64,000 nucleotides of DNA from an uncultured Planctomycetales bacterium (GCA_964467905.1 CAYXSY010000001.1:17226-81225), one strand, 5' to 3'. Shown: positions 1 to 23,845, numbered from the stretch's first letter. Made by a program: numbers and translations. Notes: generated from the sequence alone by a model not told the origin.

Positions 1-214
1 CCAGTTTTCCTATATCCGAGCCTTCAAAAAATAAAGGGCTGACGACGAAAGAATCAGTGGTAAAAGCTATTTTCTGCTTATAATCTATATAAGCGGCGTC
101 GGAAAGCGCGGAAAGTATAGGGTTATTAAGTTTAGGCAGAATCGTATCCTTAATTAAATTATGCATTAAAGAAGTTCCACTGCCGTAAGCAAGGGTTATT
201 TTATCCGTGTGCAT
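1..214 (-). CDS. hypE: Hydrogenase maturation protein HypE, N-terminal part (gene continues beyond left window edge)
   Basis: Not in the ORF track because there is no stop in the window. My minus-strand translation from ATG 214..212 gives MHTDKITLAYGSGTSLMHNLIKD...DAAYIDYKQKIAFTTDSFVVSPLFFEGSDIGKL. This matches the conserved HypE N-terminus (ITLAHGSGG ... FTTDSFVV.PLFF.GGDIGKL). Confidence 0.75.
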   Translation of the reverse strand, partial: MHTDKITLAYGSGTSLMHNLIKDTILPKLNNPILSALSDAAYIDYKQKIAFTTDSFVVSPLFFEGSDIGKL

Positions 215-238
215 TTGGTTTCCTTTTTTCAAATTAAA

Positions 239-892
239 TTACTGGCTTACTAACAAAGAAGATTCGGGCTGGGGCTCTATGCCTGCCTGGAGAAGGTCTC
301 TCTTAAGCTGCAGAAAGTCTTTAAAAATAAAGGCTCTCATACCTAAGGACTTAGCGACATCTATCAGTTCCGGACGGTCATCCGTATAGAATATCTCCTG
401 CGGTTTATTGCCTAATAAATCAATGACTTTTTTATAGATAGCGGGGTCTGGTTTCTTGAGTTTCAGTTCGAATGATGTAAATACGCGGCTAAAATCCGGC
501 AAGATGCTGTAATGCTCTTTTATATAATTAAAGTGCAAACAATTAATATTGGTCAACATGGCTAAGCTATATTTGCTTTTTAGGCTTATAGCCAGGGAAT
601 GCACCCGACTGTTATCATCAGTTACAAAGAATATTTCGTTCCAGACAGCAAGAAACTCATTATATTCTAGCCTGATCCCGAGCCTCTCCTTGACCTTAAG
701 GAAGAATTCCTGCGGGGAAACCTTGCCTTCTTCAAATTCAGCCGTCAGGTCGGAATCGAAAAAAAGATTATATATATCGGCCTCATCGCAATCGCTAGAT
801 TCCGCTATGCGCTTCGATGCTATCGAATGATCAAAGCTGATAAGCACCTTGCCTAAATCAAAAAGTATAGTTTTTATATTATTTGCTGCCAC
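239..892 (-). CDS. HAD-superfamily hydrolase
   Basis: 217-aa ORF. The N-terminal ILFDLGKVL resembles the HAD motif I variant (FDLGGVL type). The C-terminal FYTDDRPELIDVAKSLGM resembles the motif IV region. Confidence 0.7.
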   Translation of the reverse strand: MAANNIKTILFDLGKVLISFDHSIASKRIAESSDCDEADIYNLFFDSDLTAEFEEGKVSPQEFFLKVKERLGIRLEYNEFLAVWNEIFFVTDDNSRVHSLAISLKSKYSLAMLTNINCLHFNYIKEHYSILPDFSRVFTSFELKLKKPDPAIYKKVIDLLGNKPQEIFYTDDRPELIDVAKSLGMRAFIFKDFLQLKRDLLQAGIEPQPESSLLVSQ

Positions 893-895
893 CGC

Positions 896-1885
896 TTAAT
901 TTCCCTTACCCTTATCTTTCTTGAACAAATCAAGAAATCTGTCTTCATATTCCTTATAAACATTCCACTTATCAAGTTCATCTTTAAGTTCAGCTGCTTT
1001 GGCTATATCTTTCCTGGCTAAAGAAAATAATTTCTCTATCCTTTCCTTAACCGATATCGGCAGATGCGTCAGCTGGCCCAAGGCCTTCTTAATCTTTTCA
1101 ACATCCTCTTCTCCTATGGGGCCGCTTGTCTGGGAACCGATCTTTAAGTAATCAAGGAACCTGTTGATATCCTCCTCTATCGCCTGTGCCTGCGCGGCAA
1201 GAGTAGATAAGTCTATACTTATCTGTAATATCTTACAAAGCGTATCAAGAACTGCTAAAGAGGCTTTGGGATTCTCTATCTGTATTGTATACAGAGGAAT
1301 CTGCCCCAACAGACAAAAGCCATTAATCCCCTGTGACTTAGCTAAACCTATAAACAAACCGTTCATCCCGCTTATCTGGCCCTCATTAAAAAGATTAATG
1401 TTATATTTCTTAAGATTGGCCAATAGCTGCGGTGAAGTTGCGGCAAAATAAACCGAGCATTCCTGGGTATGGTCTACCGGCTGCGGCATAGCGGCAAAAG
1501 CTATAACCATCTTTACCTTACAACGCACAGCCAGCTTAATAATTCTTGAACAATAATCTTCGGCTTTGGCCAAATCAGGCTGCGCTTCGCTTATAAAAAT
1601 AATCAAGTCATTGCCTCGCGTCTTATTTTCGGCCTTACCTTGGTTATTCTTCCAATAGTAAAATTTACCCGTGGGCAGATTCGGGACTGACAATATACCG
1701 GAATCCACGTTACTGCCGGTAAGATAAAAGAACTCCTCCGAAGGAATCTGCGCAAACTCAACACATTTAAGATGTTCTACCAAATACTTAGCGGCCTTAA
1801 AAGCTACTTCGCCCATCCCGGGCCAAGCTACTATCAAATAAGGGTTTTTCAGCCTCGGAACTTTATTGACATTTATCCCTTCCAT
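896..1885 (-). CDS. PAC2-family protein (proteasome assembly chaperone 2-like) with charged coiled-coil C-terminal extension
   Basis: 329-aa ORF. The N-terminal LKNPYLIVAWPGMGEVAFKAAKYL and overall layout are recalled as typical of bacterial PAC2-family proteins. The last ~90 aa are a K/E-rich helical region. Confidence 0.55.
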   Translation of the reverse strand: MEGINVNKVPRLKNPYLIVAWPGMGEVAFKAAKYLVEHLKCVEFAQIPSEEFFYLTGSNVDSGILSVPNLPTGKFYYWKNNQGKAENKTRGNDLIIFISEAQPDLAKAEDYCSRIIKLAVRCKVKMVIAFAAMPQPVDHTQECSVYFAATSPQLLANLKKYNINLFNEGQISGMNGLFIGLAKSQGINGFCLLGQIPLYTIQIENPKASLAVLDTLCKILQISIDLSTLAAQAQAIEEDINRFLDYLKIGSQTSGPIGEEDVEKIKKALGQLTHLPISVKERIEKLFSLARKDIAKAAELKDELDKWNVYKEYEDRFLDLFKKDKGKGN

Positions 1886-1905
1886 AAAATATACTCCTGT
1901 GTTGT

Positions 1906-3033
1906 TTAGATTTTTCTATAATTAATAAGAAAATCTTCTAAGATCCTTGCTCCTTTATAAAGATTATCTACAGTTACGTACTCGTCTTTTGAATGGGCGC
2001 AGGCGCCTACTCCGAAGCCGGTTGCAATAGCAGGAATTTTTTTATCCTGAAAAAAAGTAATTACTGTAGCCCCCTCGGAACCGGTAATCTTATGTCTTGC
2101 CTTAAACTTACGCATGGACTTAGAAAGCGACCGCACCATATTATGATTATTGCAGATAGAATACGGTTTCTGTATGCCATCTATCTCTATTATAAACCTT
2201 CTTGCATGTTTGGCAACAATCTTTCTTAGGGTTTTTAATATGTCCTGCTGATGCATACCGGGGAGCGATCTGATATCCACTTCAAAAGAGCACCAATCAG
2301 CTACAATATTTACCTTATCCCCACCATGAATTGTCCCTATATTCACTGTAGGAGCCCGAAGATAATGATTTTTCTTATACCTAAACCTATGGCCCTGAAG
2401 CTCGCGGATAATGTCTACGGCTTTATTAATCGCGTTATCCCCCAAATGCGGGTAAGCTCCATGTGCTCTTTTTCCAAAAACCTTTACTCTTATATGCATA
2501 AGGCCTTTTTGAGCCACCACAATTGCGAAATCATCAGCGTCAAGAATCAAGGCCTCATCAACCTTAAGCAGCCCTTTTCTTAACAAGGGTATCAGCCCAA
2601 GCCCTGAACCGGTCTCTTCATCGGCACTGGCTGCAAAAACAAGATTATAGCCTAAGGTTTTTTTATCTTCGGTTATACTGTTTATCGCTTCTATGGCGCA
2701 GGCCAAATTGACCTTACAATCCGTAGCGCCTAAGCCGTATATTTTTCCGTCTCTGATAATACCTGAGAAAACCGGCACGCTCCAGAAACTGCCCGCGGGT
2801 ACCGTGTCCAGGTGCGGGCTTATCAACAAAGAATTCCCGTTGTTTGATGATTTTAATACAGCAATTATGTTAGAACGCCTGTTGCTGAATTCATATATTT
2901 TAGAACGGATACCTATTCTTTTTAAATAGCTGCCTACAAAAGAAGCTATTTCTCTCTCGTTGCTGCCTGGATTCTGCGAGTTGATACGGATTAAATCACG
3001 CAAAAGTTTTATAAGGCGTTTTTTATTAATCAT
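1906..3033 (-). CDS. M20-family metallopeptidase (ArgE/DapE-like deacylase)
   Basis: 375-aa ORF with SPHLDTVP, GATDCK and ADEETGS motifs typical of the ArgE/DapE/M20 family. It overlaps the upstream gene by 8 nt. Confidence 0.75.
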   Translation of the reverse strand: MINKKRLIKLLRDLIRINSQNPGSNEREIASFVGSYLKRIGIRSKIYEFSNRRSNIIAVLKSSNNGNSLLISPHLDTVPAGSFWSVPVFSGIIRDGKIYGLGATDCKVNLACAIEAINSITEDKKTLGYNLVFAASADEETGSGLGLIPLLRKGLLKVDEALILDADDFAIVVAQKGLMHIRVKVFGKRAHGAYPHLGDNAINKAVDIIRELQGHRFRYKKNHYLRAPTVNIGTIHGGDKVNIVADWCSFEVDIRSLPGMHQQDILKTLRKIVAKHARRFIIEIDGIQKPYSICNNHNMVRSLSKSMRKFKARHKITGSEGATVITFFQDKKIPAIATGFGVGACAHSKDEYVTVDNLYKGARILEDFLINYRKI

Positions 3034-3688
3034 TTTTTCTCCTAAGAAACTCGCTCAGTGGGCACAAAGAACACCTTGGCTTGTTTTTCAGGCAATAATC
3101 CTTGCCAAGCCGCACCAGAAGCGCGTGGTATTCGTTAAATAATTTTACATCTCTCTTTAAGTTGCGCATAAATATTTCTTGAATATCTGTATAGGTAGAA
3201 CCGTCTTTTGCTAATTTATGGCGCGCAAGAATCCTCTTTGTATAGGCATCGACCACAAATACCGGCTTATTTAGCGCATATAAAAGAATGGAATCAGCTG
3301 TTTCCTGCCCTATCCCGTTTACTTTAAGCAAATCCTGCCGCAGTACTAAAATATCCTTTTGGGGCATCTCGGCAATATTCATGCGGCAGTAATCGGAGAG
3401 AAATTTAAGAAAATACTTAATGCGCTTTGCCTTAACGTTATAATAACCTGCCGGCCTTATTAGTTTTGCCAATTTAACTAAAGGAATTTTATCCATCCTG
3501 CGTGGATCTAACAATCTCTGCTTCTTAAGATTGGCTATAGCCTTTTCTACATTCAGCCAGCTTGTATTTTGAGTCAGTATCGCCCCGAGCATAACCTCAA
3601 AAGCGCTATCTGCCGGCCACCATTTTTGAGCCCCGAAGAAAGTGAAAAGCTTGCTGTATATAGCGTAGAGTTTATGTGACTGGCTCAT
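3026..3688 (-). CDS. Endonuclease III-related HhH-GPD domain protein
   Basis: 220-aa ORF. It has LGAILTQNTSW, a helix-hairpin-helix LLKVNGIGQETAD followed by VVDAY, and the C-terminal Cys cluster CLKNKPRCSLCPL. Confidence 0.75.
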   Translation of the reverse strand: MSQSHKLYAIYSKLFTFFGAQKWWPADSAFEVMLGAILTQNTSWLNVEKAIANLKKQRLLDPRRMDKIPLVKLAKLIRPAGYYNVKAKRIKYFLKFLSDYCRMNIAEMPQKDILVLRQDLLKVNGIGQETADSILLYALNKPVFVVDAYTKRILARHKLAKDGSTYTDIQEIFMRNLKRDVKLFNEYHALLVRLGKDYCLKNKPRCSLCPLSEFLRRKND

Positions 3689-5637
3689 TCTTCTTTAAAT
3701 GCTAACGGGTTATAACGGCGATAAGCAAAAAATGCATAGGCACTGGCTGACAGAGAACCAGTCGAGCTGCCCTTAGGGGTAGACCAACCGTGCCCGGTAT
3801 CAACGAATTCCTCTGTTGCATAAGGCAGGCAGAAATCCCCCTGCCCCGAAGCAGAAGGGCTTGTAATTATCATGCTGCCCAGGCTATCCAGATAGTCATC
3901 CGCTAAAGTCTGGTAGGATTTTGCTTTGGATTGATTTTGTTTATGTTCCCAAAAATCCGCCATAATCTGATAAGAAATAACCATCTGTGCTGTCCACTCC
4001 GCAGAAACCACTTGTCCTCTTGCAAGGTGCCTTTGGGGAGCGAAATCAAAACCTTTTATCTTAACCTGTATTCCGTCCGGCCTTTTATACAAAACCTCCA
4101 CCGCCATATTATCCTGGGCAAAATTTATAATCTTATCCGGTGACATTGATAATTCCAAAAGCTTTTCCGGGCCTATTGCCGCAATTGACCAGGCATAGGT
4201 GTCGGTAGCAATTGTAGAATCTCCCTTACCGCGCTTTACGGGGACATCGGCTTTATCATATGTATGTTTTTCTATCCAAGACATGATCTTATCCCGAGAC
4301 TGGGAATAATCTTTATTATTTGTCAAAGAGTAAAGCATATTTAGAAAAGCATAGGCATCGAGATTATGCTCCGTAGAATACCAGCTAACCTGCGGTCCGC
4401 CGCGTAGCCCACCATCGCTATCCTGTTTTTGAAAAGCAATTATTTTATCTGCTATATCCTGCGCTAAAACCAAGTAAGAATTATCGCCGCTTTTCTTGGT
4501 ATATTGCATGGCTAATATGCCTATCCATATGTTCGGGCCGGTATGCACAATGCATTCGGCAGGAGAACCATCATCAAAATAATATGCGTTAAAAAACCAC
4601 CCCTGTGAGCGCTGGGCCTTATTCTTGAAGAAATCAAGCATCTTGCGCACGCGCCCAAAATCATTACCAAGCATATAAACCTGCCCTGCCAAAGACTGAT
4701 CATAAATAAAAGCCCAATCCCGAATATCATTATCCCCTTCAAAACTTAATACCAGCCCTGTACGAGGATTTTGATGTGCTGTTATCCAGCGGTAAACTCC
4801 CGCAAAATTACTCTTTTGAAGTTCTGCCTTTTCATTTCCCAAACGAGACAATTCTTCATTCAGGCTCTGCTGCGCCTGACCCAGGCTATCTAGCTGTGCC
4901 CTAAGCCTGTCTTTATCTTTAATCAGAAGATCAATCTGGGTATTAAGCTCTGCAATCTTCTTTGCTTTCTGTCTATTCTTTGCCTTCTCATTTTGAAGCA
5001 CCTGAAAACGAAGCTGCAAACCTTTTATTTGGTCTTGGAGCTTTTCTCTTCCCGATTCTATCTCTTTTAGATCTTTTCTTGCCGATAAATAATCTCGCCT
5101 GATTTGATTAAGCTGCTCTATCAAAACATTCTTCTGCGATGTTAAAATAACATTCTCTGAACTTAGAGTAATGTTTTCTCTGTGATTACCCCACAAAACT
5201 AAACCTAAAAATAGAAAAGCAGTCAAGGCAACCAAGGGCAGCAGCCTCTTTATATGCGCATACAGAATAATCCTGCTATTACTCTTAGCATCTATTTTTT
5301 CATACTCTACTCCGATGATATGCTTGTCAGGCGTTTTATTGTCTTGTGTTACCCATGACGGTATACCTAACGCAGATATAGGTTGAGAACTTACCGGCAT
5401 ATCAATAAGAAGAGAGAGTTTTACCTCTTTGTTCTTCAACATAAGCAATAACGGCTCAGGGATATTGTTGCCTACCAGACAAATCCCCCCCTTAGCTACA
5501 TTAGCGGTAAACCCCTGCATCCAATCGCAAACAAATTCACCGTTGGGAACTTTCAACATCCTGAATTGCACCGGGAACACGGAATTAAGACGGATATATT
5601 TACGCCTGTTTTTGGCTAAATTATCGCTCTGCTTCAT
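3685..5637 (-). CDS. PilZ domain - single TM - long coiled coil - C-terminal (alpha/alpha)6-like (six-hairpin glycosidase-like) domain protein
   Basis: 650-aa ORF. The N-terminus has the PilZ motifs RRKYIR (RxxxR) and TANVAKGG (D/NxSxxG-like). A hydrophobic helix LLPLVALTAFLFLGLVLWG follows, then ~150 aa of heptad-rich Q/K/L sequence. The remaining ~350 aa are rich in W/Y/D repeats (GLVLSFEG..DWAFIYDQSLA, WYSTEHNLDAYAF). It overlaps both neighbours by 4 nt. Confidence 0.6.
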   Translation of the reverse strand: MKQSDNLAKNRRKYIRLNSVFPVQFRMLKVPNGEFVCDWMQGFTANVAKGGICLVGNNIPEPLLLMLKNKEVKLSLLIDMPVSSQPISALGIPSWVTQDNKTPDKHIIGVEYEKIDAKSNSRIILYAHIKRLLPLVALTAFLFLGLVLWGNHRENITLSSENVILTSQKNVLIEQLNQIRRDYLSARKDLKEIESGREKLQDQIKGLQLRFQVLQNEKAKNRQKAKKIAELNTQIDLLIKDKDRLRAQLDSLGQAQQSLNEELSRLGNEKAELQKSNFAGVYRWITAHQNPRTGLVLSFEGDNDIRDWAFIYDQSLAGQVYMLGNDFGRVRKMLDFFKNKAQRSQGWFFNAYYFDDGSPAECIVHTGPNIWIGILAMQYTKKSGDNSYLVLAQDIADKIIAFQKQDSDGGLRGGPQVSWYSTEHNLDAYAFLNMLYSLTNNKDYSQSRDKIMSWIEKHTYDKADVPVKRGKGDSTIATDTYAWSIAAIGPEKLLELSMSPDKIINFAQDNMAVEVLYKRPDGIQVKIKGFDFAPQRHLARGQVVSAEWTAQMVISYQIMADFWEHKQNQSKAKSYQTLADDYLDSLGSMIITSPSASGQGDFCLPYATEEFVDTGHGWSTPKGSSTGSLSASAYAFFAYRRYNPLAFKEE

Positions 5638-8084
5638 TTAATCCTTTCTAATACAACTCTTTGTTTCACCTTCTTAGCCAACCCTTCGAACAAATGCTTG
5701 AAAGCGGGATAATCATTTTGCGTTATTATCCTTTTCTTTAATACTATTCTTTGGGTAAAGCGCAGTTTATTATTTTTAAAATCATACCTGAATATAAAAT
5801 TCATCCACGGGTTATCTTCTTCAACGCTGCCGGGCATATGCTTGACGGTAAAACCCTGCGGCAACTTAATTTCAACAATGTCTTCCTTGTCATATAAGAC
5901 CCCTGCATCAAGCGGATATTTACGGCTGTCTTTTGCTACAGAAGAAGTATCAAGCCCGCCTAATTGCGGCAGTATCCTCAAATTTCCTGCCTGCGTAAAA
6001 TACTCCGAACCGTAGAATGAATATTTCAAAATAACAGGCTTATTCAGATCATTTACATTTTCAGTGCTATATCCTTCAAGTTTAGCCCCTATGGATATCT
6101 TTTGTATGGCCTCTTTTAAAGCCTGCTCCACTAATTCCGGAGGAGTATATAAAAGCCAGAAGCGCTGAGATTGGTCATACCTGCCGTGGGTTGAGGCGGT
6201 CTTTGAAGCATTGATGCTTTCATCCTTATTCACATTGATATTAATAATCTGCTCTACCGAGTTATGCTCCGCGGGATAAAACGGAGTACGGGATATCAAA
6301 TAGCCGCTTTCTTTAAAGATTAATACTGATCTGTCCTGGTCCATCTGCGGCAGATCACCGAAAGAACAAGTCTGCGCCGTAGGATCAAGAAAAATCAAGT
6401 CACCGTTAAAATCTACGCAGGCTATGCAATGGTTAAAAAGCACTGCAGGGAAGCTCTCGTTTAAATTATAGTAATCATCTGTAGGAATAAGCACCAGGTA
6501 CGCCGAGAATCCGGCCTCTCTTAACATAGTTACCAAAAGAACGGCCTGATCTTTACAATCGCCGTATTTATTCCTGAAGATATCCTCTGCCCTGTGCGGC
6601 TCATAACCTGCCTGGCCATATTCAACAGCTACGTAACGTATATCTTTGGCGCAGAAATTATAAATTGCCCTTATCTGGTCTTCTGGTGGCTTTAACCCTT
6701 TAATCAAATCTTTCACTTTATCCTTTATCGCGTCACTAGGAGCGATCTTATCTCTAGCGAGAGTCCACCACCAGTTATAAATTTCCTGCCATGAATCAAA
6801 AGTAGAAATAAGCATAGTGGTATTAATCTCGGTGTCAGGCGGCATACTTGGCTCAGGGATTATCTGCGGGATATCGCTAAAATCCCATTTATATAATTTA
6901 TAACCGTTAATTTTCTCAACCTTCGGCTCCAAGGAAACCTTAAAACTGTTATACTCTTGGTTCAGGAAACGCATATTAATCTTTGTTTTATCAGGAATCT
7001 TAACTGTAAATCTTGCCCTGATAACCGGCTCTTGCGCCTGGACGGGGTAGCTAAGTACAAAATCTTTTTTATTAATCAACTGGTTCCTTTTTATTTTAAG
7101 CTTATACTCAATGCAAGAACCATCAGTAATCTCAGGAAAAGAAATAATAAAAACCCTGACATTGCTGTAAAGCGGAAAATTAAGATACTTGGAAACATTC
7201 CTGATATGCCGCGACCCGACATTTATTACTTCTCCGTCAGGTTTAATGGTGCGCGCATATTCCAACTCTACCTTTTCATAAGTAGAATCATATTCTATCT
7301 GTATTTCGGAGAAATCCTCCCTGCCCCTCTGGTTTAATATCTTTACCAAATAATGCATCTGGCTTATTTGGTTATATTCAGAATTAACCTCTATCTGTTC
7401 ATCGCAATACAAAATAAGCCCCCCCGCCTGAGGATAGTTTTCTGCTTTAGGAGCAGCAGAAATAATATTATATATATCGCTATCCACGTCCTTTATATAG
7501 GAGGCTAAGGTATCCTTCTCAATAATATCTAATCTCTGTTCAGCCAAAAATTTAAATTGCGGGACTTTTATATTTTTATATGTAGCCAGGGCGCGGTCAA
7601 AGAGATTAAGTTTTTCTTCAGTCAGGCCTTTATAATAGAGAGATTCTGCATCCTCTGTTTTCATCTTATCGAAAACCTCCAGGGCATCGGTAAACTGCCC
7701 GAGCCGATAATAAGAGATAGCGATGAACTTCTCGGCTTTCGGTTCTTTTGCTTTCTTTAAGACTGAGAGCGCATTTTCAAAATCACCGCGAGAATAATAA
7801 AGCATCCCTAAATCAAAATATGTTTTCGCGGAATTATCTGCCTTAGTAAGAAGCGTCTTATATTGCGCAACTGCCTGCTGGTAATAATAATCGGAACGCT
7901 CGGCATCTTTCTTAGCATTTGCGGAATCGTCCGGTTTTATACAACCATAAATAGAACATATAAAAATAACCGCCAGAAATGCAATAATAAAGTGCGCCTT
8001 TATAAACATGATTGCCTTACGCATAAGCCGATAACTTTGTAACTTATTTCTTATATCTATAATACGCATTGCATGCTCCTTCAT
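5634..8084 (-). CDS. TPR / DUF3857-like / transglutaminase-core / DUF3858-like lipoprotein
   Basis: 816-aa ORF with a lipobox (FICSIYGC), TPR-like repeats (YFDLGMLYYSRGDFENA..) and a transglutaminase Cys motif (YGDCKDQAVLLVTMLREAGF). The track start overlaps hypD by 41 nt. The internal start MRKAIMFIK.. at 8024 gives a cleaner signal peptide. Confidence 0.7.
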   Translation of the reverse strand: MKEHAMRIIDIRNKLQSYRLMRKAIMFIKAHFIIAFLAVIFICSIYGCIKPDDSANAKKDAERSDYYYQQAVAQYKTLLTKADNSAKTYFDLGMLYYSRGDFENALSVLKKAKEPKAEKFIAISYYRLGQFTDALEVFDKMKTEDAESLYYKGLTEEKLNLFDRALATYKNIKVPQFKFLAEQRLDIIEKDTLASYIKDVDSDIYNIISAAPKAENYPQAGGLILYCDEQIEVNSEYNQISQMHYLVKILNQRGREDFSEIQIEYDSTYEKVELEYARTIKPDGEVINVGSRHIRNVSKYLNFPLYSNVRVFIISFPEITDGSCIEYKLKIKRNQLINKKDFVLSYPVQAQEPVIRARFTVKIPDKTKINMRFLNQEYNSFKVSLEPKVEKINGYKLYKWDFSDIPQIIPEPSMPPDTEINTTMLISTFDSWQEIYNWWWTLARDKIAPSDAIKDKVKDLIKGLKPPEDQIRAIYNFCAKDIRYVAVEYGQAGYEPHRAEDIFRNKYGDCKDQAVLLVTMLREAGFSAYLVLIPTDDYYNLNESFPAVLFNHCIACVDFNGDLIFLDPTAQTCSFGDLPQMDQDRSVLIFKESGYLISRTPFYPAEHNSVEQIININVNKDESINASKTASTHGRYDQSQRFWLLYTPPELVEQALKEAIQKISIGAKLEGYSTENVNDLNKPVILKYSFYGSEYFTQAGNLRILPQLGGLDTSSVAKDSRKYPLDAGVLYDKEDIVEIKLPQGFTVKHMPGSVEEDNPWMNFIFRYDFKNNKLRFTQRIVLKKRIITQNDYPAFKHLFEGLAKKVKQRVVLERIK

Positions 8085-9162
8085 TTGAAATCATACACGG
8101 GCCGATTGGATTAATTGTGGTGCACACTTTAGCGAACAATGAACAATCGCTGGGATTGATTAACCCCTTTAAAACATCGCCACATCTGCATTTATCATAA
8201 ACTCTGCCTAATCGTTGATTCAAATATCCCTCTTTTAATGGCAATTGTTCCTCGGCGTCAAAATCACAGTACTGTTTCCTGGCTTTCAAGCCGCTCAAAG
8301 GCACTCTACCTAATCCGCGCCAATCGGCATCGGCAGGCATAAAGACCTGAGAAATAAGTTTTCTTGCCTGCGCATTTCCTGAAGCGCTGACTACCCTTGT
8401 GTATTGATTCTGGACTACAGCAGAATCTTTAGCTATCTGCTCAACAATAAAATATATCCCCTCTAATATATCCAAGGGTTCAAATCCGGCTATACAACAG
8501 GGAATTTTATACCTGCGCGGTATAAACTTGTACGCCTGCTCTCCGGTAACGACTGAAACGTGCCCGGGGCAAAGGAAACCGTCAACTTTTACCCGCTCAT
8601 CCCTGAGGAGATGCTCCATAACGGGAGGAATTAATTTCAACGAAGAAAAGAAAAACAGGTTATTTATCTTTTGTTTCTTTGCCAAAACTATGCTTATCGC
8701 TATCGTCGGTATGGTTGTCTCGAATCCCACCGCCAGAAATATTATATTCTTCGAAGGGTTGTCATTAGCAATTTTTAAACTATCGAGCGCAGAATACGCT
8801 ATCTTCACGTTAGAGAATCTTACACGCGCCTCCTCCAGAGTAGAAACCGAGCCCCTTACACGCAGCATATCTCCGAATGTAACGACAATATTTTCTTTCT
8901 CTTTGGCGTAAGCAATGGCCTTATCAATATAATCCCGTGGTGAAACACATACCGGGCACCCCGGACCGGAAATAAATCTTATATTATCCGGCAAAACCTT
9001 ATCCAGCCCAAAACGAAAAAAGTTATGGGTATGTGTACCGCAGACTTCCATAATATTTATCCTGCGCCCGGGAATAATAGACTTTATGACCCTGACTAAC
9101 TTATCAGCCAATTTCTTATTTCTGAAATCATCAACGTATTTCATCCCGTCAGAAATCTCCAT
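8044..9162 (-). CDS. hypD: Hydrogenase maturation protein HypD
   Basis: 372-aa ORF with CGTHTH, GPGCPVCV and GFETT motifs characteristic of HypD. Confidence 0.9.
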   Translation of the reverse strand: MEISDGMKYVDDFRNKKLADKLVRVIKSIIPGRRINIMEVCGTHTHNFFRFGLDKVLPDNIRFISGPGCPVCVSPRDYIDKAIAYAKEKENIVVTFGDMLRVRGSVSTLEEARVRFSNVKIAYSALDSLKIANDNPSKNIIFLAVGFETTIPTIAISIVLAKKQKINNLFFFSSLKLIPPVMEHLLRDERVKVDGFLCPGHVSVVTGEQAYKFIPRRYKIPCCIAGFEPLDILEGIYFIVEQIAKDSAVVQNQYTRVVSASGNAQARKLISQVFMPADADWRGLGRVPLSGLKARKQYCDFDAEEQLPLKEGYLNQRLGRVYDKCRCGDVLKGLINPSDCSLFAKVCTTINPIGPCMISNEGACNAYYRYKK

Positions 9163-9182
9163 TTGCCCGTATTGAAAAATTT

Positions 9183-9392
9183 CTAACGGGATTCATTAAT
9201 CATCCTTAAGGTTTCTTTGGCTTTGCGCGGATCGAGTTTCTCTATGGCAAACCCGGCATGAACAATAACATAATCGCCTATTTTTAAACCCTTTACCATA
9301 CGGATATTAATCGTACGTGTAAGGCCGCTGCTTTGTACGCTAGCAAACTCACCGTCTATCTTTCTTATCTTCATCGGCACAGCTAAACACAT
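9183..9392 (-). CDS. hypC: Hydrogenase maturation chaperone HypC/HupF
   Basis: 69-aa ORF starting MCLAVPMKI (essential Cys2). Size and OB-fold-like sequence are typical of HypC. Confidence 0.9.
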   Translation of the reverse strand: MCLAVPMKIRKIDGEFASVQSSGLTRTINIRMVKGLKIGDYVIVHAGFAIEKLDPRKAKETLRMINESR

Positions 9393-10519
9393 ATTTTTCC
9401 CCTGAAATTAGCTACTGCTGCCTGGCCAAGCGAAAGCGAGCTATCCGAAGCAGAAAGCTTATTGTGCGAATACACAGAAAATCCGTTCCCCCGTAAAAGG
9501 GCTTCCGCCATCGAAAATAAAAGCCTGTTTTGGAATACACCTCCGGACAAAACCACCTTTCTTATCCCGGTTTCTTCGCGCAAAATAATACTCATATTTT
9601 TTATTAATAAGGCTACGGCCTGATGAAAATAATACGCCATCTCTTCATGAGGCACTCCTTTTTTTATATCAATAAGCAGCGCCTTAAATAAACTCACTGG
9701 GTCTATTATATAACATCTGCCCCTTATTATATTTAATTTATAGCGCGGTCGTTTATCCTCTTTAAGCCCGGCCTGATAAGCCAAGGCTAATCTCTCAAGC
9801 CGCATTGGTAACTCACCCTCAAACCTAGAAAAAGAACATCGCATAATCAAAGCAGCAACCGCATCGAATAACCTGCCCATACTGCTTGCCGGATAGGAAT
9901 AAATATGTTTTTGATAAAGCTCTTCCAGATATTTGACTTTACGATAACCTATTTTTCTCATTATATAACTGATGCCCCCTTGCTTCATGATGCGTAACCA
10001 ATAGAATACAAGCCTTGCCGGCTCGAGGACGGCACTCTCTCCCCCCAAAAGCAGCACTTCCCTTACGTGCGCTCTCCTTGAGAACCCGGAGTAATCGCCA
10101 ACCAAAAATTCCCCTCCCCATATTTTACCATCAACACCTAATCCAGTGCCGTCAAAAGCTACACCTATTACCCGTTGATTTGTAAAAAAATTCTCGGCCA
10201 TGCAAGAAGCAATATGCGCATGGTGATGCTGTATGGGAGAAAGAACATATTTACGAGCGGAAAAAGCAACGGCATACTCGCTGGAATAATATCCCGGATG
10301 CAAATCATAAGCAAGTATTTTGGGATGTTTTTTAATAAGTTTTTTGGCTTCTTCTTCAAAGCTTAAGCGGTCTTGTGGATTATCCAGATCAGCCTTAACA
10401 GAACTTACAAAAGCCTTATCTTTCTCGATAAAACAGACGGTGTTCTTGGTTTGTGAGCCAAAAGCTAAGATCGGCTCTCTGGCCTTAAATGCCAGGTCAA
10501 TGCGGCAAAAATTCTTCAT
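9383..10519 (-). CDS. hypF: HypF-like protein consisting only of the C-terminal Kae1/ASKHA-like domain
   Basis: 378-aa ORF with AYDLHPGYYSSEYA, IQHHHAHIASCMAE and GVAFDGTGLGVDGKIWGGE, which match the C-terminal half of HypF. No acylphosphatase, Zn-finger or YrdC-like region precedes it, because the upstream ORF is an exonuclease. Confidence 0.75.
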   Translation of the reverse strand: MKNFCRIDLAFKAREPILAFGSQTKNTVCFIEKDKAFVSSVKADLDNPQDRLSFEEEAKKLIKKHPKILAYDLHPGYYSSEYAVAFSARKYVLSPIQHHHAHIASCMAENFFTNQRVIGVAFDGTGLGVDGKIWGGEFLVGDYSGFSRRAHVREVLLLGGESAVLEPARLVFYWLRIMKQGGISYIMRKIGYRKVKYLEELYQKHIYSYPASSMGRLFDAVAALIMRCSFSRFEGELPMRLERLALAYQAGLKEDKRPRYKLNIIRGRCYIIDPVSLFKALLIDIKKGVPHEEMAYYFHQAVALLIKNMSIILREETGIRKVVLSGGVFQNRLLFSMAEALLRGNGFSVYSHNKLSASDSSLSLGQAAVANFRGKICV

Positions 10520-11337
10520 AATATTTCCAAATGTAATATAGAATCTACCCTAAAAGTACGCTCATCCTTGCGTAAAGAGCAATAGCCTACCATATAAGAA
10601 TGGCCGCGCTCCCTGCGGATCTCCTTGGGCGTGATCTCTCTTTCAGTAAGCTCAGCACTCACGCTTGATAAATAGTTTATTTTAATCGAAGCCCCCAGGC
10701 CTATTGCCTCTTGAATCTTGGCTATTTTACTGTTATTCATATCTTCCAGGAGAGCCAGGTTAATCCCGAAAAGATTGACAAAATTGGAGAAACTAAATAT
10801 GCCTTTATGATAAAGCATATCCTTCAATTTATTAAAAACCTCCAGGGCAATCTGGGCGTCTGAAAAAGCCCGGTGCTCCTGCTGCATGTTCACCTGCATT
10901 TTCTGCGATACAAACCATAAAGCATATCTTTCCATCCCGGGGAGAAGCCTTTTGGCCATCTTCAGTATGTCTATAACAATAATATCATTTAATTTGCCTC
11001 TACCCGACAAAACAAGCTCATTCTCAATAAAACCCATATCAAACGCGGCATTATAAGAACAAAGACAGCTCCCCTTAATAAAATTCAGGAAGTTATCTAA
11101 TACCGCCTCCGGCGCAGGCGAATTTTCTAACATTTCTCTGGTTATATGGTTTACCGCAAAAGCAGCCGGAGAAATCTCTTTGGGAGAATTAATAAAACTG
11201 TGGAATTTGCCAAGAACCTTCTGCCCCTTAACCCTTAGTCCAGCAATTTCGACTATGCGATCCCCAGAATCAGGATTAAGCCCGGTGGTCTCTGTATCAA
11301 ATATGGTAAACTCTATATCGTCAATATATCTGTCCAT
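10516..11337 (-). CDS. DEDDh 3'-5' exonuclease (DnaQ/epsilon-like) fused to a C-terminal WYL-like domain
   Basis: 273-aa ORF with ExoI FDTETTGL, ExoII YNAAFDMGF and ExoIII HRAFSDAQ. The C-terminal ~70 aa (GHSYMVGYCSLRKDERTFRVDSILHLEIL) resemble a WYL domain. It overlaps hypF by 4 nt. Confidence 0.65.
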   Translation of the reverse strand: MDRYIDDIEFTIFDTETTGLNPDSGDRIVEIAGLRVKGQKVLGKFHSFINSPKEISPAAFAVNHITREMLENSPAPEAVLDNFLNFIKGSCLCSYNAAFDMGFIENELVLSGRGKLNDIIVIDILKMAKRLLPGMERYALWFVSQKMQVNMQQEHRAFSDAQIALEVFNKLKDMLYHKGIFSFSNFVNLFGINLALLEDMNNSKIAKIQEAIGLGASIKINYLSSVSAELTEREITPKEIRRERGHSYMVGYCSLRKDERTFRVDSILHLEIL

Positions 11338-11351
11338 GCTGTAATCTCAAG

Positions 11352-12245
11352 CTATTTTCTGGCTATAAAACTCTTAACAAGCTTAACCGGACGATAAGAA
11401 AGCTTAACTGACTTTAAATTGTCCAGCCCGGAATCATCCATAATATTTACGTATGTGCAATCTTTGACTTCAGAAACAAAACGGCTGAATATAAACTGCG
11501 CCAGACCCTTGATTGTTAAATCGGTTATTTCATAAAGTACGCAAAAAGTGTCATTATTGAGCTTGAAACCAAAAGTAAAAGCCTTTACTCTATCCTTTAT
11601 TCTTACAACTCTTCCCTGACAGGCTAATTTACGGTAATGCTTTAACAACACGCTGAGCGCATTAAAGCTATCGTCCATCATACCGCTATACACCTTATCC
11701 GCGTATTTTGCTTTTCTCTGTGAAGACCATAGCTTATATAAACTAAGGCATTCTTCTAAGAAACCATCCGAATACTCAAGCCACTCATAATCATACGATT
11801 TTATAAAACTATTGTAAGAAGAACGCTTGTGCTTATAAGCATTGCCGCTTAAAACGGCGATTGATTTGCTGCGGCACAAATAATCGCACGACTTAAAATC
11901 AACCCTTAAACCTGCCTCAAGGTATGTGCTTATGCTATCTTCTTCTATATTCTCAATACGCGATACTTCTGTGTTTACGTTAAACCCATCAAGAATCTTA
12001 AAGATTTCCCCCAGCAGTACAGGGCTAACTGTCTTTTTTGTAAGCGGAGGTAAATATAAAAACGCCCCTATCTTATCTTTAAAGAATATGCAGAGGGCAT
12101 CGTCAATTATATCCCAGCGCATATCAAAAAGTCCGCTCCATATAAAAATATTCTCGAAAGCATAAACCGAGAGATTATGTTTATTAACTGATAAATATTT
12201 AACAAAGATATTTTTATCTTTAATTGATAGTTTATTTAGCTGCAT
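11352..12245 (-). CDS. DUF2156 (MprF C-terminal / aminoacyl-tRNA transferase-like dupli-GNAT) domain protein
   Basis: 297-aa ORF. The N-terminal pattern LSVYAFENIFIWSGLFDMRW...ALCIFFKD is what I recall for stand-alone DUF2156 / LPG_synthase_C proteins. Confidence 0.55.
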   Translation of the reverse strand: MQLNKLSIKDKNIFVKYLSVNKHNLSVYAFENIFIWSGLFDMRWDIIDDALCIFFKDKIGAFLYLPPLTKKTVSPVLLGEIFKILDGFNVNTEVSRIENIEEDSISTYLEAGLRVDFKSCDYLCRSKSIAVLSGNAYKHKRSSYNSFIKSYDYEWLEYSDGFLEECLSLYKLWSSQRKAKYADKVYSGMMDDSFNALSVLLKHYRKLACQGRVVRIKDRVKAFTFGFKLNNDTFCVLYEITDLTIKGLAQFIFSRFVSEVKDCTYVNIMDDSGLDNLKSVKLSYRPVKLVKSFIARK

Positions 12246-12744
12246 TCCCGGGGTCTAGCTCTATAAGCTCGGTTACTTCTTCATAAGCCTGGAGAATATG
12301 GGGATTATCTTTTAGTATGCGCTTATAATCCGGAGTGTTTAACAGCTCGGTTAAATAAGCGGTATATTCCTTAAATTCGGATGAGTTTATTTTTTCTTTT
12401 GCATACGGACAGTTTAGATCAACTGTTAATAAAACTTTACCGGAACGCAAATTAAGTAAAAACGGATAAAGCTGACATTCAAAAGGACGCATTGAATAAA
12501 TCTGGCATTTGTTACTTTTTATATCAAGAAACGGGCAGATATAGCCCTGGCCTGATACGTCCTGCTTAAGCATAAGTTTTCTACCGGCAGATATGCAAGC
12601 AGATGGTATCTGTTTATCCAGAAGATCCTGTATCTCTTCATCCAACAGGCACGGGCTCCAGATAGATTCTGCTTCTCTAAAACGACAACATCCCTGGCAC
12701 TTTAAACATACATCTTCAGGCACAAACTGCTTAAAGTTCTTCAT
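12232..12744 (-). CDS. YkgJ-family cysteine-cluster (CxxCxxCC) protein
   Basis: 170-aa ORF with CLKCQGCCRF near the N-terminus and further Cys pairs (CPF...CQIY, CPY). It overlaps the downstream gene by 14 nt. Confidence 0.65.
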   Translation of the reverse strand: MKNFKQFVPEDVCLKCQGCCRFREAESIWSPCLLDEEIQDLLDKQIPSACISAGRKLMLKQDVSGQGYICPFLDIKSNKCQIYSMRPFECQLYPFLLNLRSGKVLLTVDLNCPYAKEKINSSEFKEYTAYLTELLNTPDYKRILKDNPHILQAYEEVTELIELDPGNAAK

Positions 12745-12808
12745 AGTTTAACCCCGCTGGCTATAAACTTAAGTGATACCGCACATCCTCCGGAAAATAC
12801 AAAAAGAA

Positions 12809-13129
12809 TCATTTAACAATACTCCCTAATTTAACATTCCTTGAGGGAGAAATAATGCAAATCCCCTCTTCATCCGAAGCAGCCAGAATCATCCCCTGAC
12901 TTTCTACTCCGCGTAGTACTGCCGGCTCAAGATTATCAACCAAAACAACCTGCTTACCTATCAAATCCTCTTTAGAATAAGACTTCTTTATCCCGGCAAC
13001 AACCTGTTTTGTTTTATCTCCGACATCAAGAGTTATTACGTAAAGTCTGTCGGCATCAGGATGATCCGCTACTTCTTTAATCTGGGCAATCTTAAAATCC
13101 AGCTTTTTAAAATCATCTATTGTCGCCAT
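12809..13129 (-). CDS. Free-standing tRNA-binding OB-fold protein (Trbp111/CsaA/EMAP-like)
   Basis: 106-aa ORF. KIAQIKEVADHPDADRLYVITLDVGD..QVVAGIK..Y..EDLIGKQVVLVDNLEPAVLRGVESQGMILAA is the classical tRNA_bind domain pattern. Confidence 0.8.
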   Translation of the reverse strand: MATIDDFKKLDFKIAQIKEVADHPDADRLYVITLDVGDKTKQVVAGIKKSYSKEDLIGKQVVLVDNLEPAVLRGVESQGMILAASDEEGICIISPSRNVKLGSIVK

Positions 13130-13148
13130 ACCCTCTCCTTATTTTTTT

Positions 13149-13308
13149 GCACCGTCTGCACTTGTAATCTCGCACCGTCTGCAGATTCAAGATTGTACCT
13201 GTCCCCCACCTCTATATAATAACGGCAAGAAGTGCCCTAAAAACCTACCGGGTGGCAGGTACAAGCACAAATTCGCAGACGGTGCGAGATTGAGTTTGCA
13301 GACGGTGC
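13149..13308. repeat. ~160-bp imperfect inverted repeat (long hairpin) with internal direct repeats of GCACCGTCTGC
   Basis: The left arm (13149..13210) and the reverse complement of the right arm (13251..13308) align over gcaccgtctgca / atctcgcaccgtctgc / tgtacctg / ccacc blocks. GCACCGTCTGC occurs twice in each arm. The element lies between the OMP stop (13319) and the SD of the tRNA-binding protein gene. Confidence 0.8.
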
Positions 13309-13318
13309 TCTTTTATTT

Positions 13319-14842
13319 TTAGAATGTTATCTCGAAAGCAAGTTCTAATTGATAGGCGCAATCAGCGTCCCCGTCTCCGCGCAAATAGGGACTTAATAAA
13401 CTTCCACCCGTATCATCACGCCTTTCTTTATAATATCCCCCGGGGATAAAATAACCCCCCAAAAAACTTATCAATATATTCTTATTTAGCTGATAATCAA
13501 CGATTAAATCCGTTTCATACCCTAATTCTCTGGATAAATATTTCGACCTACCCAGATACATGCCGACTGCCTTATTGAAAGATGATAAATAATAAAAATC
13601 AAATTGCACGCTTATCTTGGGGTTAACTTCTAAACCGAAACCAAAACATGGCATAAGCAGGTTTTCAAAATCTCCCGGGGAAAATGTTGTTGGGCGCGGG
13701 ACGCCATAACTCAAGCCGTATCCTGCCCCCATCGCAATAATAGGGAGCATGTCAACGTTGCTAGAAGTAACCGAATCCCCCAGGTTCTCGTTAAGGGGAG
13801 AAAAATAACTAAAAGCCCTGTTTTTTCCGCTAGTCAAAGTAGTCGCCCCTGACTGGGCCATTTCAGGAGTAACTTTATTACCTGAAGCCGCAAGAAACTT
13901 CAGATACGGAGTAAATTTACCTAAAAGAAGATCCGCCTCTCCATAAAGCAGATAACCGGTATGCTCTACGTCTTTAAAGTCGGAGTTAATGCTTACTGCT
14001 TTCCCAAAATTTCTTGCTGCCTCTGCCTTTAAAGATAGAATCTCATTGCTATAATCCCAGGCGACTCCAAAAGTTCCCAATATTTCTTTCTTTACAGGTG
14101 CACTAAAGATATTAAATCTTTTGCCCGGGGAAGTATAATCAGTAATCACTCCGATATAAGGCCAGAGACTATGTTTATCGAACTTAAATTTAGCATCCAG
14201 AGAAAAGAAGTTTGCGGCATTAGGTTCATAATACATGCCTTGTTCTTCTTCCTGCGAGATAACCGGTCCGCGGTGTATTTTATAGACTATATCCGGACGG
14301 CAATAGTAAAGACGCCAGGAGAAATCTCCGCTATCCTGGTATAAAGTTGCTCCGTAATTCTCATAGCTGCCGTTTAAACTAAAACCATTGCCTACTTCAT
14401 AAAGATAAAGCCCGGATCTAAATCTAGCGCTGCCTAAAAACGGAATATCCAGCCAAAACTCTTCGACCTGCGGCAGCAATTCTTTGTTACGGTACCTCTG
14501 AATTGCCCCGCCGTAAGTCATCAATGTATTCTCAATAAACAGCGGTGCGTCGTAATCATAAGGACCATTGCGTTCAAGCTTTACATAAAACTGCGGGCCA
14601 TCATTTTTAAACTCCAGATCAAAACCAAGACTGTAATCTATGCCCAGATAAGTAGTTTTATCATCGCTATTAGCGGAATCAAGCGTAACGACATTACGCC
14701 ATGTAACTACATCCGTCCTAAGATACGGCGTTATTGAAAATGCGAGATTCTGATTATCCAAGGCAAGAAAAGCATAGCAGGCATCCGCTAAAAGCGGAAC
14801 TATAACAAAGAACAATATAATAATTATTCTTAGGATAGGCAT
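13319..14842 (-). CDS. Putative outer-membrane beta-barrel protein
   Basis: 507-aa ORF with an N-terminal hydrophobic signal sequence, alternating aromatic/Gly-rich strands, and the C-terminal ...LELAFEITF (terminal Phe OMP signature). Confidence 0.55.
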   Translation of the reverse strand: MPILRIIIILFFVIVPLLADACYAFLALDNQNLAFSITPYLRTDVVTWRNVVTLDSANSDDKTTYLGIDYSLGFDLEFKNDGPQFYVKLERNGPYDYDAPLFIENTLMTYGGAIQRYRNKELLPQVEEFWLDIPFLGSARFRSGLYLYEVGNGFSLNGSYENYGATLYQDSGDFSWRLYYCRPDIVYKIHRGPVISQEEEQGMYYEPNAANFFSLDAKFKFDKHSLWPYIGVITDYTSPGKRFNIFSAPVKKEILGTFGVAWDYSNEILSLKAEAARNFGKAVSINSDFKDVEHTGYLLYGEADLLLGKFTPYLKFLAASGNKVTPEMAQSGATTLTSGKNRAFSYFSPLNENLGDSVTSSNVDMLPIIAMGAGYGLSYGVPRPTTFSPGDFENLLMPCFGFGLEVNPKISVQFDFYYLSSFNKAVGMYLGRSKYLSRELGYETDLIVDYQLNKNILISFLGGYFIPGGYYKERRDDTGGSLLSPYLRGDGDADCAYQLELAFEITF

Positions 14843-21847: not shown

Positions 21848-22656
21848 TTCAAGTGCCCCGTGACTAAATAGCCGAGGTATAAAGGAAAATTAAAAAACCT
21901 GAAGAATAAAAATAATCCTGCCCAGCCGACAATATAGCGGATCTCCCTGTAGGTTATTCTACCCTGTTTATGCGCATGCATATGCCCGTCAAACATGCGA
22001 CATGACATAGCGCAATAAATACGCTCTGCGCGGTCTAGGGTACGCAACAATAGATTCCCCACCAAGGGCACGAAAACCTTAAAACCTAAGACCGCCCTAA
22101 AAGACCCTCTGAATGAACTGGCGCGTACCATGCGCTCAGCCTCATCCGCTAATACAAATATATAGCGGTAGAAAAAAAGAAGTTGAGATACAAACACACG
22201 AGGCACGCCTAGGCTTAATAATGATTCGCAAATAGTATTAAAACCGGTTAAAGCCACCAGGCACATGGCTGATGTCACCGTTAATACAAAGCGCAGCATA
22301 ATCGATGCAAAAGAAACCCATCCTCCCGAAACACCAAGCGTTCCGAAATAAAATAATATTTGTTTATCTATGAGCGGGTTGAAAATCCCCAGTAAGATAG
22401 CAAACGGAGAAACCAATAATACTTTTCTCAATAAATAGCCTGCAGGAAGTCCGGCAGAAGCAATTAAAACGGCAGGATAGATAAAAAATGGCAATAGCCC
22501 CAGAACTTCATATTTACCGAAAGAAACAACCGTGACGATAAAAAATAAAGTAGTAATTATCTTAGCTCTCGGGGACAAGCTGTGTAATGGGCTATTTCCC
22601 GAAGCCAAAACATCCATATAACCTATATCGAATGAATTCCTGCCGATATTATTCAT
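21844..22656 (-). CDS. cbiQ: ECF transporter transmembrane (T) component CbiQ/NikQ
   Basis: 270-aa polytopic membrane ORF placed between the CbiM-like and CbiO-like genes. It has an ARG-containing coupling helix region (..RAERIYCAM..). Confidence 0.75.
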   Translation of the reverse strand: MNNIGRNSFDIGYMDVLASGNSPLHSLSPRAKIITTLFFIVTVVSFGKYEVLGLLPFFIYPAVLIASAGLPAGYLLRKVLLVSPFAILLGIFNPLIDKQILFYFGTLGVSGGWVSFASIMLRFVLTVTSAMCLVALTGFNTICESLLSLGVPRVFVSQLLFFYRYIFVLADEAERMVRASSFRGSFRAVLGFKVFVPLVGNLLLRTLDRAERIYCAMSCRMFDGHMHAHKQGRITYREIRYIVGWAGLFLFFRFFNFPLYLGYLVTGHLK

Positions 22657-22718
22657 AAATGAAGGCGAAATTAAAATAGAAACTTAGGGTTCTATTATAA
22701 ACCCTCGGCAGGAACTGG

Positions 22719-23750: not shown

Positions 23751-23845
23751 AGTTTCCCTCCTTCGCAGTTAGCGAACATCGGCCGATCAGATTAGGCCAG
23801 ATGTTATCATTATATAATAAAAGCTTGCAACCGCAGAGCCGTTTT

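Follow-up and report, generated by a model that had tools for sequence, protein, structure and literature searches.

Most known targets of PilZ receptors of the second messenger cyclic diguanylate (c-di-GMP) are cytoplasmic or embedded in the membrane, such as flagellar motors, synthases and transcription. The main case in which a PilZ domain is connected with a domain in the periplasm is Alg44, the alginate co-polymerase of Pseudomonas aeruginosa, in which a cytoplasmic PilZ domain with the motifs RxxxR and DxSxxG is followed by one membrane span and a mostly helical part in the periplasm, and through which cytoplasmic c-di-GMP controls a periplasmic or envelope process (PMC12564702). Here we describe a gene, called A, in a 64,000-nucleotide stretch of DNA from an uncultured Planctomycetales bacterium (GCA_964467905.1, CAYXSY010000001.1:17226-81225; the whole stretch is called the window), and its upstream neighbour, gene B. 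The family of protein A would be a second, structurally different solution to the same task. A first-pass annotation of this DNA had considered the relay of a signal to a domain outside the membrane unusual for a PilZ protein; the principle is already known from Alg44 (PMC12564702), and what is new is the output domain.

Protein A resembles Alg44 in the order of its parts, an N-terminal PilZ domain, one span and a helical part. It differs in that the periplasmic part of Alg44 is a membrane-fusion (HlyD-like) domain, whereas A ends in a predicted (alpha/alpha)6 barrel and no membrane-fusion beta-domains were detected in it; moreover, alg44 lies in the alginate operon and A among housekeeping genes. 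A second comparison is with the Bcs system, in which BcsA and BcsZ together likewise combine a PilZ receptor with a periplasmic (alpha/alpha)6 domain. BcsZ is a periplasmic (alpha/alpha)6 glycanase of family GH8, for which A gave no match in Pfam or among the Foldseek matches listed. The PilZ domain of Bcs is part of a synthase of glycosyltransferase family 2 (GT2), the glycanase being separate and soluble; that of A is joined to the barrel, and no synthase is encoded nearby. The features that define the Alg44 and Bcs families are absent from A.

Our best reading is that A is a receptor-enzyme with its N-terminus inside and its C-terminus outside (N-in/C-out), its PilZ domain governing a barrel that acts on a glycan in the periplasm; we regard this reading, taken as a whole, as evenly balanced between right and wrong. 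The cytoplasmic PilZ domain would bind c-di-GMP, and the last PilZ helix, the transmembrane helix and the heptad-periodic stalk would form one continuous rod. A nucleotide-induced change, or c-di-GMP-driven oligomerisation, could then be passed mechanically to the barrel, a relay that is possible because PilZ helix, transmembrane helix and coiled coil are continuous. The barrel would most likely cut, transfer or otherwise process an endogenous envelope glycan or a secreted one. Protein B would be a periplasmic lipoprotein, usually co-transcribed with A and not a required partner.

Domain order and predicted topology of protein A

Genes A and B (open reading frames 3685..5637 and 5634..8084) lie on the minus strand and, as the first-pass annotation had it, overlap by 4 nt. 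The domain order given there for A, namely PilZ, one transmembrane helix, coiled coil and a six-hairpin-like domain, is borne out by Pfam, AlphaFold2 (AF2) and Foldseek; the coiled coil, put there at about 150 amino acids, measures about 130 (residues 153-283). The features of A are the following.

3685..5637, minus strand: gene A, encoding the 650-amino-acid PilZ/transmembrane/coiled-coil/(alpha/alpha)6 protein, stop codon included (open reading frame call)
5266..5610, minus strand: PilZ domain, residues 10-124, with RxxxR at residues 12-16 and N-x-A-x-x-G at residues 46-51 (Pfam, PDB profile, AF2)
5182..5241, minus strand: predicted single transmembrane helix, residues about 133-152, continuous with the last PilZ helix, residues 117-132 (AF2, hydrophobicity)
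4789..5181, minus strand: predicted coiled-coil stalk, residues 153-283 (helical in AF2, with 3.5- and 7-residue hydrophobic periodicity)
3688..4788, minus strand: predicted (alpha/alpha)6-barrel domain, residues 284-650 (Foldseek against the PDB; Pfam GH76 below threshold)

The two c-di-GMP motifs named in the first-pass annotation were confirmed and read R11-R12-K-Y-I-R16 and N46-V-A-K-G50-G51 in this copy. R12, R16 and G51 are each present in all of 82 orthologues, and 81 of them have N or D at position 46. The Pfam PilZ model matches 38 of 41 aligned family members (best 9.3e-11), and the domain is kept in homologues whose barrels are only 28-40% identical, where it scores 28-32 bits. A family profile run against the PDB aligned both motifs with those of YpfA from B. 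subtilis (5vx6, E 0.006). In the AF2 model of A, which has a mean predicted local distance difference test (pLDDT) value of 80 and a predicted template-modelling score (pTM) of 0.67, residues 22-115 form a beta-barrel. Because the RxxxR and (N/D)x(S/G/A)xxG motifs are intact, the PilZ domain of A is predicted to bind c-di-GMP.

From residue 117 to residue 220 the AF2 model shows one unbroken helix, which runs through the hydrophobic segment 133-152 and is followed by a second helix (225-287). The hydrophobic segment is 20 residues long in every one of the 82 orthologues. In these proteins the 15 residues ahead of it carry a mean net charge of +3.9, as compared with +1.3 behind it, for which reason an N-in orientation fits; A would thus be an N-in/C-out protein of the inner membrane.

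Beyond the membrane, the stalk has a strong hydrophobic periodicity of 3.5 and 7 residues that is found neither in the PilZ nor in the barrel region. Its length in the 82 orthologues clusters around 125, 132, 139 and 146 residues, which are steps of one heptad. Since it varies by whole heptads, we favour a continuous, probably parallel and oligomeric coiled coil of about 20 nm over the hairpin drawn by AF2. An extended parallel coiled coil would hold the barrel about 20 nm away from the membrane.

The barrel and its wider family

AF2 models the C-terminal domain as twelve alternating helices, the end of the stalk helix included, with pLDDT values of 85-97 for the barrel helices. Foldseek found 144 matches in the PDB at E<=1e-3, and the 50 that were listed are almost all (alpha/alpha)6 enzymes of the glycosidase/epimerase type: AGE-family epimerases and isomerases, GH76 mannanases, the GH126 protein CPF_2247, an unsaturated glucuronyl hydrolase of the GH88 type and a polysaccharide lyase. 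The best E-value is about 1e-7 at a probability of 1.00, with target-normalised template-modelling (TM) scores of 0.45-0.67, root-mean-square deviations of 6-8 Å and identities of 8-15%. As modelled, the barrel is a member of the six-hairpin glycosidase/epimerase superfamily at the level of the fold only. That the similarity is one of superfamily is indicated by P0179, a paralogue of the barrel, which passes the Pfam thresholds for GH76, GH88 and GlcNAc 2-epimerase together. Of the six-hairpin glycosidase fold that the first-pass annotation had proposed, the fold class therefore stands, on the Foldseek search with the AF2 model and at superfamily level; membership of the barrel in a known glycosidase family was not demonstrable, GH76 remaining below threshold.

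Among barrel paralogues that are 25-49% identical, the residues S298, Y312, D313, G367, I395, E423, N425, L435, G470, D479, G529, F532, E547 and Y606 never change. D313, G367, E423/N425, D479 and E547 lie at or beside the N-terminal ends of the helices beginning at 311, 366, 422, 478 and 546 in the predicted secondary structure. It is at the face formed by the N-terminal ends of those helices that (alpha/alpha)6 enzymes have their active sites. The invariant D313, E423, D479 and E547 at this face suggest conservation of the kind seen in an active site. The barrel is also the best-conserved part of A, with a mean column identity of 0.76 as against 0.50-0.64 elsewhere; among 14 orthologues that are 61-65% identical to the window copy it reaches 80%. 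We propose that, on the evidence of the model, the barrel represents a branch of the six-hairpin superfamily that had not been classified before.

Residues 283-650 served as the query of an exhaustive phmmer search. Grouped at 50% identity, the matches amounted to 764 clusters at E<=1e-3, 362 at E<=1e-10 and 103 at E<=1e-30. The barrel occurs in them in three settings: in PilZ fusion proteins of 595-709 amino acids such as A, in stand-alone paralogues of 370-450 amino acids, and within very large proteins of 2,000-7,900 amino acids. The named sources of the barrel matches that were looked up are Omnitrophota, except for one match that bears the label Deltaproteobacteria and one cluster member that bears the label of a Thermoplasmata archaeon.

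Two independent arguments place the barrel outside the cytoplasmic membrane. All of the seven stand-alone paralogues examined begin with a hydrophobic segment resembling a signal peptide, one of them with a possible lipobox instead. In three other proteins (P0217, P0213 and P0198) a hydrophobic or transmembrane segment precedes the barrel by 15-35 residues, and in P0217 and P0213 the transmembrane segment divides the barrel from B12-binding radical-SAM modules; because the latter must be cytoplasmic, the barrel would be outside in these two proteins. Signal peptides for the Sec pathway or for lipoproteins and the position behind the membrane segment thus agree with the first-pass annotation, which had put the C-terminal domain of A outside the membrane, and the barrel would also work there in A.

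P0213 and P0217 contain, in the same polypeptide as the barrel, domains of the GT2 type (Glyco_trans_2_3; Glucan_synthase-like). This fusion is a hint that the barrel handles a glycan that a processive synthase makes.

The very large barrel proteins include P0213 (3011 amino acids), P0217 (2179), P0187 (3817), P0206 (7886), P0223 (5959, with 6 matched stretches), P0267 and P0270, and are from Omnitrophota wherever a source is named. P0213 and P0217 unite GT2, a B12-binding radical-SAM module, a transmembrane segment and, after it, the barrel; P0270 is called an L,D-transpeptidase family protein at NCBI. A preprint on giant genes of Omnitrophota describes one giant protein with an extracellular stretch whose fold is like that of cellobiose 2-epimerase (10.1101/2023.11.21.568195); this stretch may be the barrel module of A. 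This fold and small pilZ genes are all that the preprint contains on the family (10.1101/2023.11.21.568195). We found no literature on the family of A, a search for surveys of PilZ architectures giving nothing specific, and in the databases its homologues are named only "PilZ domain-containing protein" or "hypothetical".

More than 1300 homologues of A were found, the best 120 of which are full length and 50-55% identical; all source names given are Omnitrophota. In a pattern-based scan that covered one representative genome for each GTDB species, at least 341 genomes turned out to contain a relative of A. The 80 genomes retrieved are metagenome-assembled or single amplified genomes of Omnitrophota, except that a minority bear the labels Planctomycetales, Deltaproteobacteria or Margulisiibacteriota, in our view wrongly. 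We propose that A is a signature protein of the Omnitrophota. It is among the more conserved and widespread proteins of this large uncultured phylum, which is thought to include parasitic or predatory nanobacteria. The isolated domains of A are small and look soluble, so that their biochemistry is accessible although the organisms are not.

Objections and rival readings

Several observations weigh against a c-di-GMP-controlled, glycan-active enzyme and are collected here. In the PilZ domain, the Ser of the second motif (position 48) is replaced by Ala in the window copy; in the 82 orthologues it is Ser in 44, Gly in 34 and Ala in 3. The Pfam PilZ model (PF07238) stays below its threshold for this copy, with 18.8 bits as compared to a cut-off of 22.5. 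A motif search for diguanylate cyclases and phosphodiesterases found no GGDEF motif anywhere in the 64-kb window.

These are the points in favour of a degenerate PilZ domain, which would not bind c-di-GMP and would serve, like the eponymous PilZ of P. aeruginosa, as an interaction or anchoring module, A then being a membrane-anchored periplasmic enzyme. The invariance of R12, R16 and G51 and the near-invariance of N/D46 would be hard to explain without nucleotide binding, the canonical Ser is retained in the larger group of orthologues, and GGDEF domains have been reported in giant proteins of Omnitrophota (bioRxiv 10.1101/2023.11.21.568195). We therefore consider a degenerate PilZ domain quite unlikely.

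A further objection concerns the stalk, which the AF2 monomer draws as a hairpin made of the helices 117-220 and 225-287. If this were true, the barrel would be back at the membrane instead of 20 nm away from it.

As to the barrel, the only recurring signal at the sequence level is GH76, and it is below threshold: 23.3 bits in this copy versus a cut-off of 25.9. The Pfam GH76 model matches 23 of 41 family members at E<=0.01, and a PDB profile search gave GH76 chains with E-values of 0.02-0.7. The endo-alpha-1,6-mannanases of this family (BT3792, BcAman6, ShGH76) have the same fold as A and are locally similar to it at the start of the N-x-W helix and in the next hairpin; the identity is 11-15% and the target-normalised TM score 0.45-0.64. 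Catalysis in GH76 depends on two adjacent Asp, D136/D137 in ShGH76, where W140 follows three residues on (PMC9213526), and D124/D125 in BcGH76. Alignments of hidden Markov models, weak but with the conserved N-x-W as an anchor, pair P368-N369-I370-W371 of A with D-N-(I/V)-W in 6u4z and 4mu9. The place of the Asp-Asp dyad is thus taken in A by Gly367-Pro368, which is invariant among the orthologues. With scores below threshold and the catalytic Asp-Asp replaced by Gly-Pro, an identity of the barrel as a GH76 mannanase was rejected.

Finally, no glycosyltransferase, export or diguanylate cyclase genes were found near A, nor genes of polysaccharide synthesis or export in its neighbourhood, and the GT2-fused paralogues of the barrel are only about 30% identical. 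The envelope or exopolysaccharide module that the first-pass annotation had suggested is accordingly left with its glycan connection, through the fusions in P0213 and P0217, and lacks the polysaccharide-synthesis genes nearby.

Part of this evidence would also suit a non-catalytic scaffold of the Alg44 kind, a c-di-GMP-binding co-polymerase or scaffold for synthase-dependent secretion of a polysaccharide by a machine encoded elsewhere, whose barrel would only bind the nascent glycan. The N-terminal logic is that of Alg44 (PilZ, transmembrane helix, helical periplasmic part), the stalk hairpin of AF2 is like the alpha-hairpin of membrane-fusion proteins, the GH76 dyad is missing, and barrel paralogues are fused to GT2 synthase-like domains. 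Still, a scaffold appears to us unlikely: the four carboxylates at the active-site face, invariant like several aromatic residues in paralogues 25-49% identical, fit catalysis better than binding alone; no HlyD or membrane-fusion beta-domain is present, the NCBIfam HlyD match (E 0.066) covering only the coiled coil; and the conserved neighbourhood contains no synthase gene. We retain the controlled glycan-active enzyme as the preferred reading.

Gene B, its neighbours and the rest of the window

The features of gene B and the gene on the other side of A are the following; residue numbers of B refer to the 816-amino-acid frame.

5634..8069, minus strand: gene B, encoding a lipoprotein with TPR, DUF3857, transglutaminase core and DUF3858; probable start ATG 8069 (811 amino acids)
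5634..8084, minus strand: longest open reading frame of gene B (816 amino acids)
7941..8069, minus strand: predicted signal peptide and lipobox of B, I-Y-G-C48
7650..7916, minus strand: TPR repeats of B, residues about 57-145 (several Pfam TPR models, 1e-8 to 1e-5)
6864..7361, minus strand: DUF3857 of B, residues 242-407 (PF12969, 1.5e-31, 110.2 bits versus a cut-off of 24.6)
6384..6716, minus strand: transglutaminase-like core of B (PF01841, 4.4e-11, 43.4 bits versus 23), with the triad Cys510, His552 and Asp567
5661..5927, minus strand: DUF3858 of B, residues 720-808 (PF12970, 1.4e-6, 28.8 bits versus 27)
3026..3688, minus strand: HhH-GPD (endonuclease III-like) gene, directly 3' of A (Pfam HhH-GPD 5.5e-18)

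The first-pass annotation had described B as a lipoprotein with TPR, DUF3857-like and transglutaminase domains, in agreement with the Pfam matches. In 50 of 50 B orthologues the triad Cys510-His552-Asp567 is kept, and in 42 of the 50 a hydrophobic stretch is closely followed by Cys, mostly as (L/I/F)-x-(G/A)-C. The signal peptide of the window copy ends in ...FLAVIFICSIYG-C48, in which the Tyr at position -2 is atypical. The lipobox and the triad mark B as a periplasmic lipoprotein whose transglutaminase or cysteine-peptidase centre is apparently active. It has the full set of DUF3857, Transglut_core and DUF3858 above the Pfam thresholds, as do other transglutaminase-like proteins of this family, to which it adds the N-terminal lipoprotein signal and the TPR repeats. 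To our knowledge no function has been tested in the DUF3857/DUF3858 family.

The gene order around A was compared in 82 loci, 80 from the GTDB scan and 2 contigs with the homologue P0114. Among the 66 loci with enough flank, 50 have B as the gene directly upstream of A, and the junction between the two ranges from -14 to +17 nt (58 loci). The most constant neighbour of A is the HhH-GPD gene, which is directly downstream in 72 of 75 loci and has no evident functional relation to A; 32 of 76 loci show a -4 nt junction between A and this gene. On a tree of the A sequences, the loci that lack B make up two whole clades and three single lineages; HypD abuts A in one of these clades and the RNase_T-WYL gene in the other.

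The order common to the loci is tRNA_bind, CxxCxxCC, LPG_synthase_C, RNase_T-WYL, a variable slot, A, HhH-GPD, M20 peptidase, PAC2 and HAD. The variable slot holds HypF', HypD or PabB-like genes and usually also B, and in some loci a hexokinase gene stands between HhH-GPD and the M20 peptidase. Throughout the phylum these housekeeping genes, which are unrelated in function, form a backbone around A, and for this reason adjacency or overlap says little on function. The pairing of A and B reflects this backbone synteny at least as much as function, and B is a frequent but dispensable neighbour of A rather than an obligate partner.

This bears on the first-pass annotation in two ways. That the genes would be found paired in other genomes holds for the 50 loci, although B is missing in whole clades. 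The argument from a translationally coupled pair turned out to be weak, B being absent from the locus in the clades and lineages mentioned and HhH-GPD being the more constant neighbour. A and B overlap by the 4 nt ATGA, with a Shine-Dalgarno-like stretch GAAAGGA just 5' of the ATG of A, and the stop codon of A overlaps the HhH-GPD gene likewise by 4 nt. The overlap is not evidence for coupling because the junction of A with HhH-GPD is the same and better conserved and because overlaps are common in the window, where the genes are tightly packed on a single coding strand; the 4-nt overlap as a sign of functional coupling between A and B was therefore discarded.

In the LapD/LapG system, a transmembrane c-di-GMP effector controls a periplasmic protease. 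LapG is a periplasmic cysteine protease of the transglutaminase fold, and its family is BTLCP. A beside B looks similar, a transmembrane c-di-GMP receptor next to a periplasmic transglutaminase-fold enzyme with Cys-His-Asp. By the same logic, A and B could form an inside-out switch, in which the barrel of A, mainly as a docking surface, sequesters or releases B and thereby governs proteolysis or cross-linking of envelope or surface proteins. The invariant triad of the periplasmic B, its TPR repeats, which are suited for protein interaction, and the close junctions in the loci in which B adjoins A are consistent with this. We nevertheless judge such a switch very unlikely. A occurs without adjoining B in two clades and three further lineages, tight junctions are general in this genome, and barrel paralogues lacking PilZ keep the catalytic-looking invariant carboxylates. 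In addition, LapD is a degenerate EAL/GGDEF protein with HAMP, whereas A is a PilZ protein in which profile searches found no HAMP, GGDEF or EAL domain; B is of the Transglut_core/DUF3857 type and gave no match to PF06035, the LapG family.

A more far-reaching version would make A and B the PilZ-based counterpart of LapD and LapG: the heptad stalk of about 20 nm would be a "ruler" that positions or gates a barrel of a new class and that also controls B at the level of the peptidoglycan or the outer membrane; the barrel recurs in the giant, probably extracellular, predation-linked proteins of Omnitrophota. If it were true, the phylum would have its own catalytic unit for remodelling the envelope or the wall of the prey under the control of a second messenger; we think it very improbable. 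The preferred reading of A as a PilZ-controlled enzyme leaves B as a frequent neighbour.

With respect to the start of B, the first-pass annotation had given 816 amino acids from 8084. The sequence AAGGAG lies 6 nt 5' of the ATG at 8069, and in several B orthologues the equivalent Met is the sole one ahead of the signal peptide. On account of this site and of the N-termini of the orthologues, B probably starts at ATG 8069 rather than 8084 and has 811 amino acids; a start at 8024 was dropped in favour of 8069 on the same grounds. The stop codon of HypD is at 8044, so that B overlaps HypD by 26 nt when counted from 8069 and by 41 nt from 8084.

Between 8044 and 8084 (minus strand), the peptide encoded in the frame of B 5' of the signal peptide ("KE-x-A-M-R-I-I-D") is seemingly conserved in orthologues (also at loci L006, L019, L024, L025, L048 and L075). 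This stretch lies within the conserved 3' end of HypD (...NEGACNAYYRY...), which is read in another frame, and also supplies the AAGGAG ribosome-binding site of B. The conservation of the peptide is most likely a by-product of HypD. An open reading frame on the plus strand within B (6957..7337) is without support.

In the window (1-64000), all open reading frames of at least 150 amino acids are on the minus strand, save those nested antisense in longer ones of the minus strand. The GC skew is negative in 32 of 32 windows of 2 kb; the AT skew has a single outlier (+0.21) at 22001-24000, over genes of hydrophobic membrane proteins. Scans of the region 800-13400 were uninformative both for promoters (28 promoter-like sites versus 32.8 expected) and for terminators (12 terminator-like sites versus 11.6 expected).

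Upstream of the intact HypD gene, and separated from it by a gap of 220 nt (9163-9382), is an open reading frame of 378 amino acids (9383-10519, minus strand) whose matches are confined to the C-terminal part of HypF, namely its two Kae1-like domains (HypF_C 4e-25, HypF_C_2 4e-66). Full-length HypF carries in addition acylphosphatase, zinc-finger and YrdC-like parts, none of which was matched at E<=1e-4; the reading frame may be a truncated or split HypF. The sole match to an "EAL" pattern in the window falls within it and is spurious.

The product of the adjoining gene (10516-11337, minus strand) joins an RNase_T (DEDD exonuclease) domain to a WYL domain at its C-terminus; the combination is also found in locus L001, and locus L073 has an open reading frame of similar size in the same position. 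Even genomes with A proteins of only about 50% identity share the gene order. In the window (1-14842) and in L001, L065 and L073 the order also includes an unannotated open reading frame of 504-507 amino acids before tRNA_bind. In the window it has 507 amino acids (13319-14842, minus strand), an N-terminal hydrophobic signal-like segment, the C-terminus ...AFEITF and no Pfam match at E<=1e-4, and it may encode an outer-membrane beta-barrel; in L065 and L073 the reading frame in the same position is of like size (504 amino acids).

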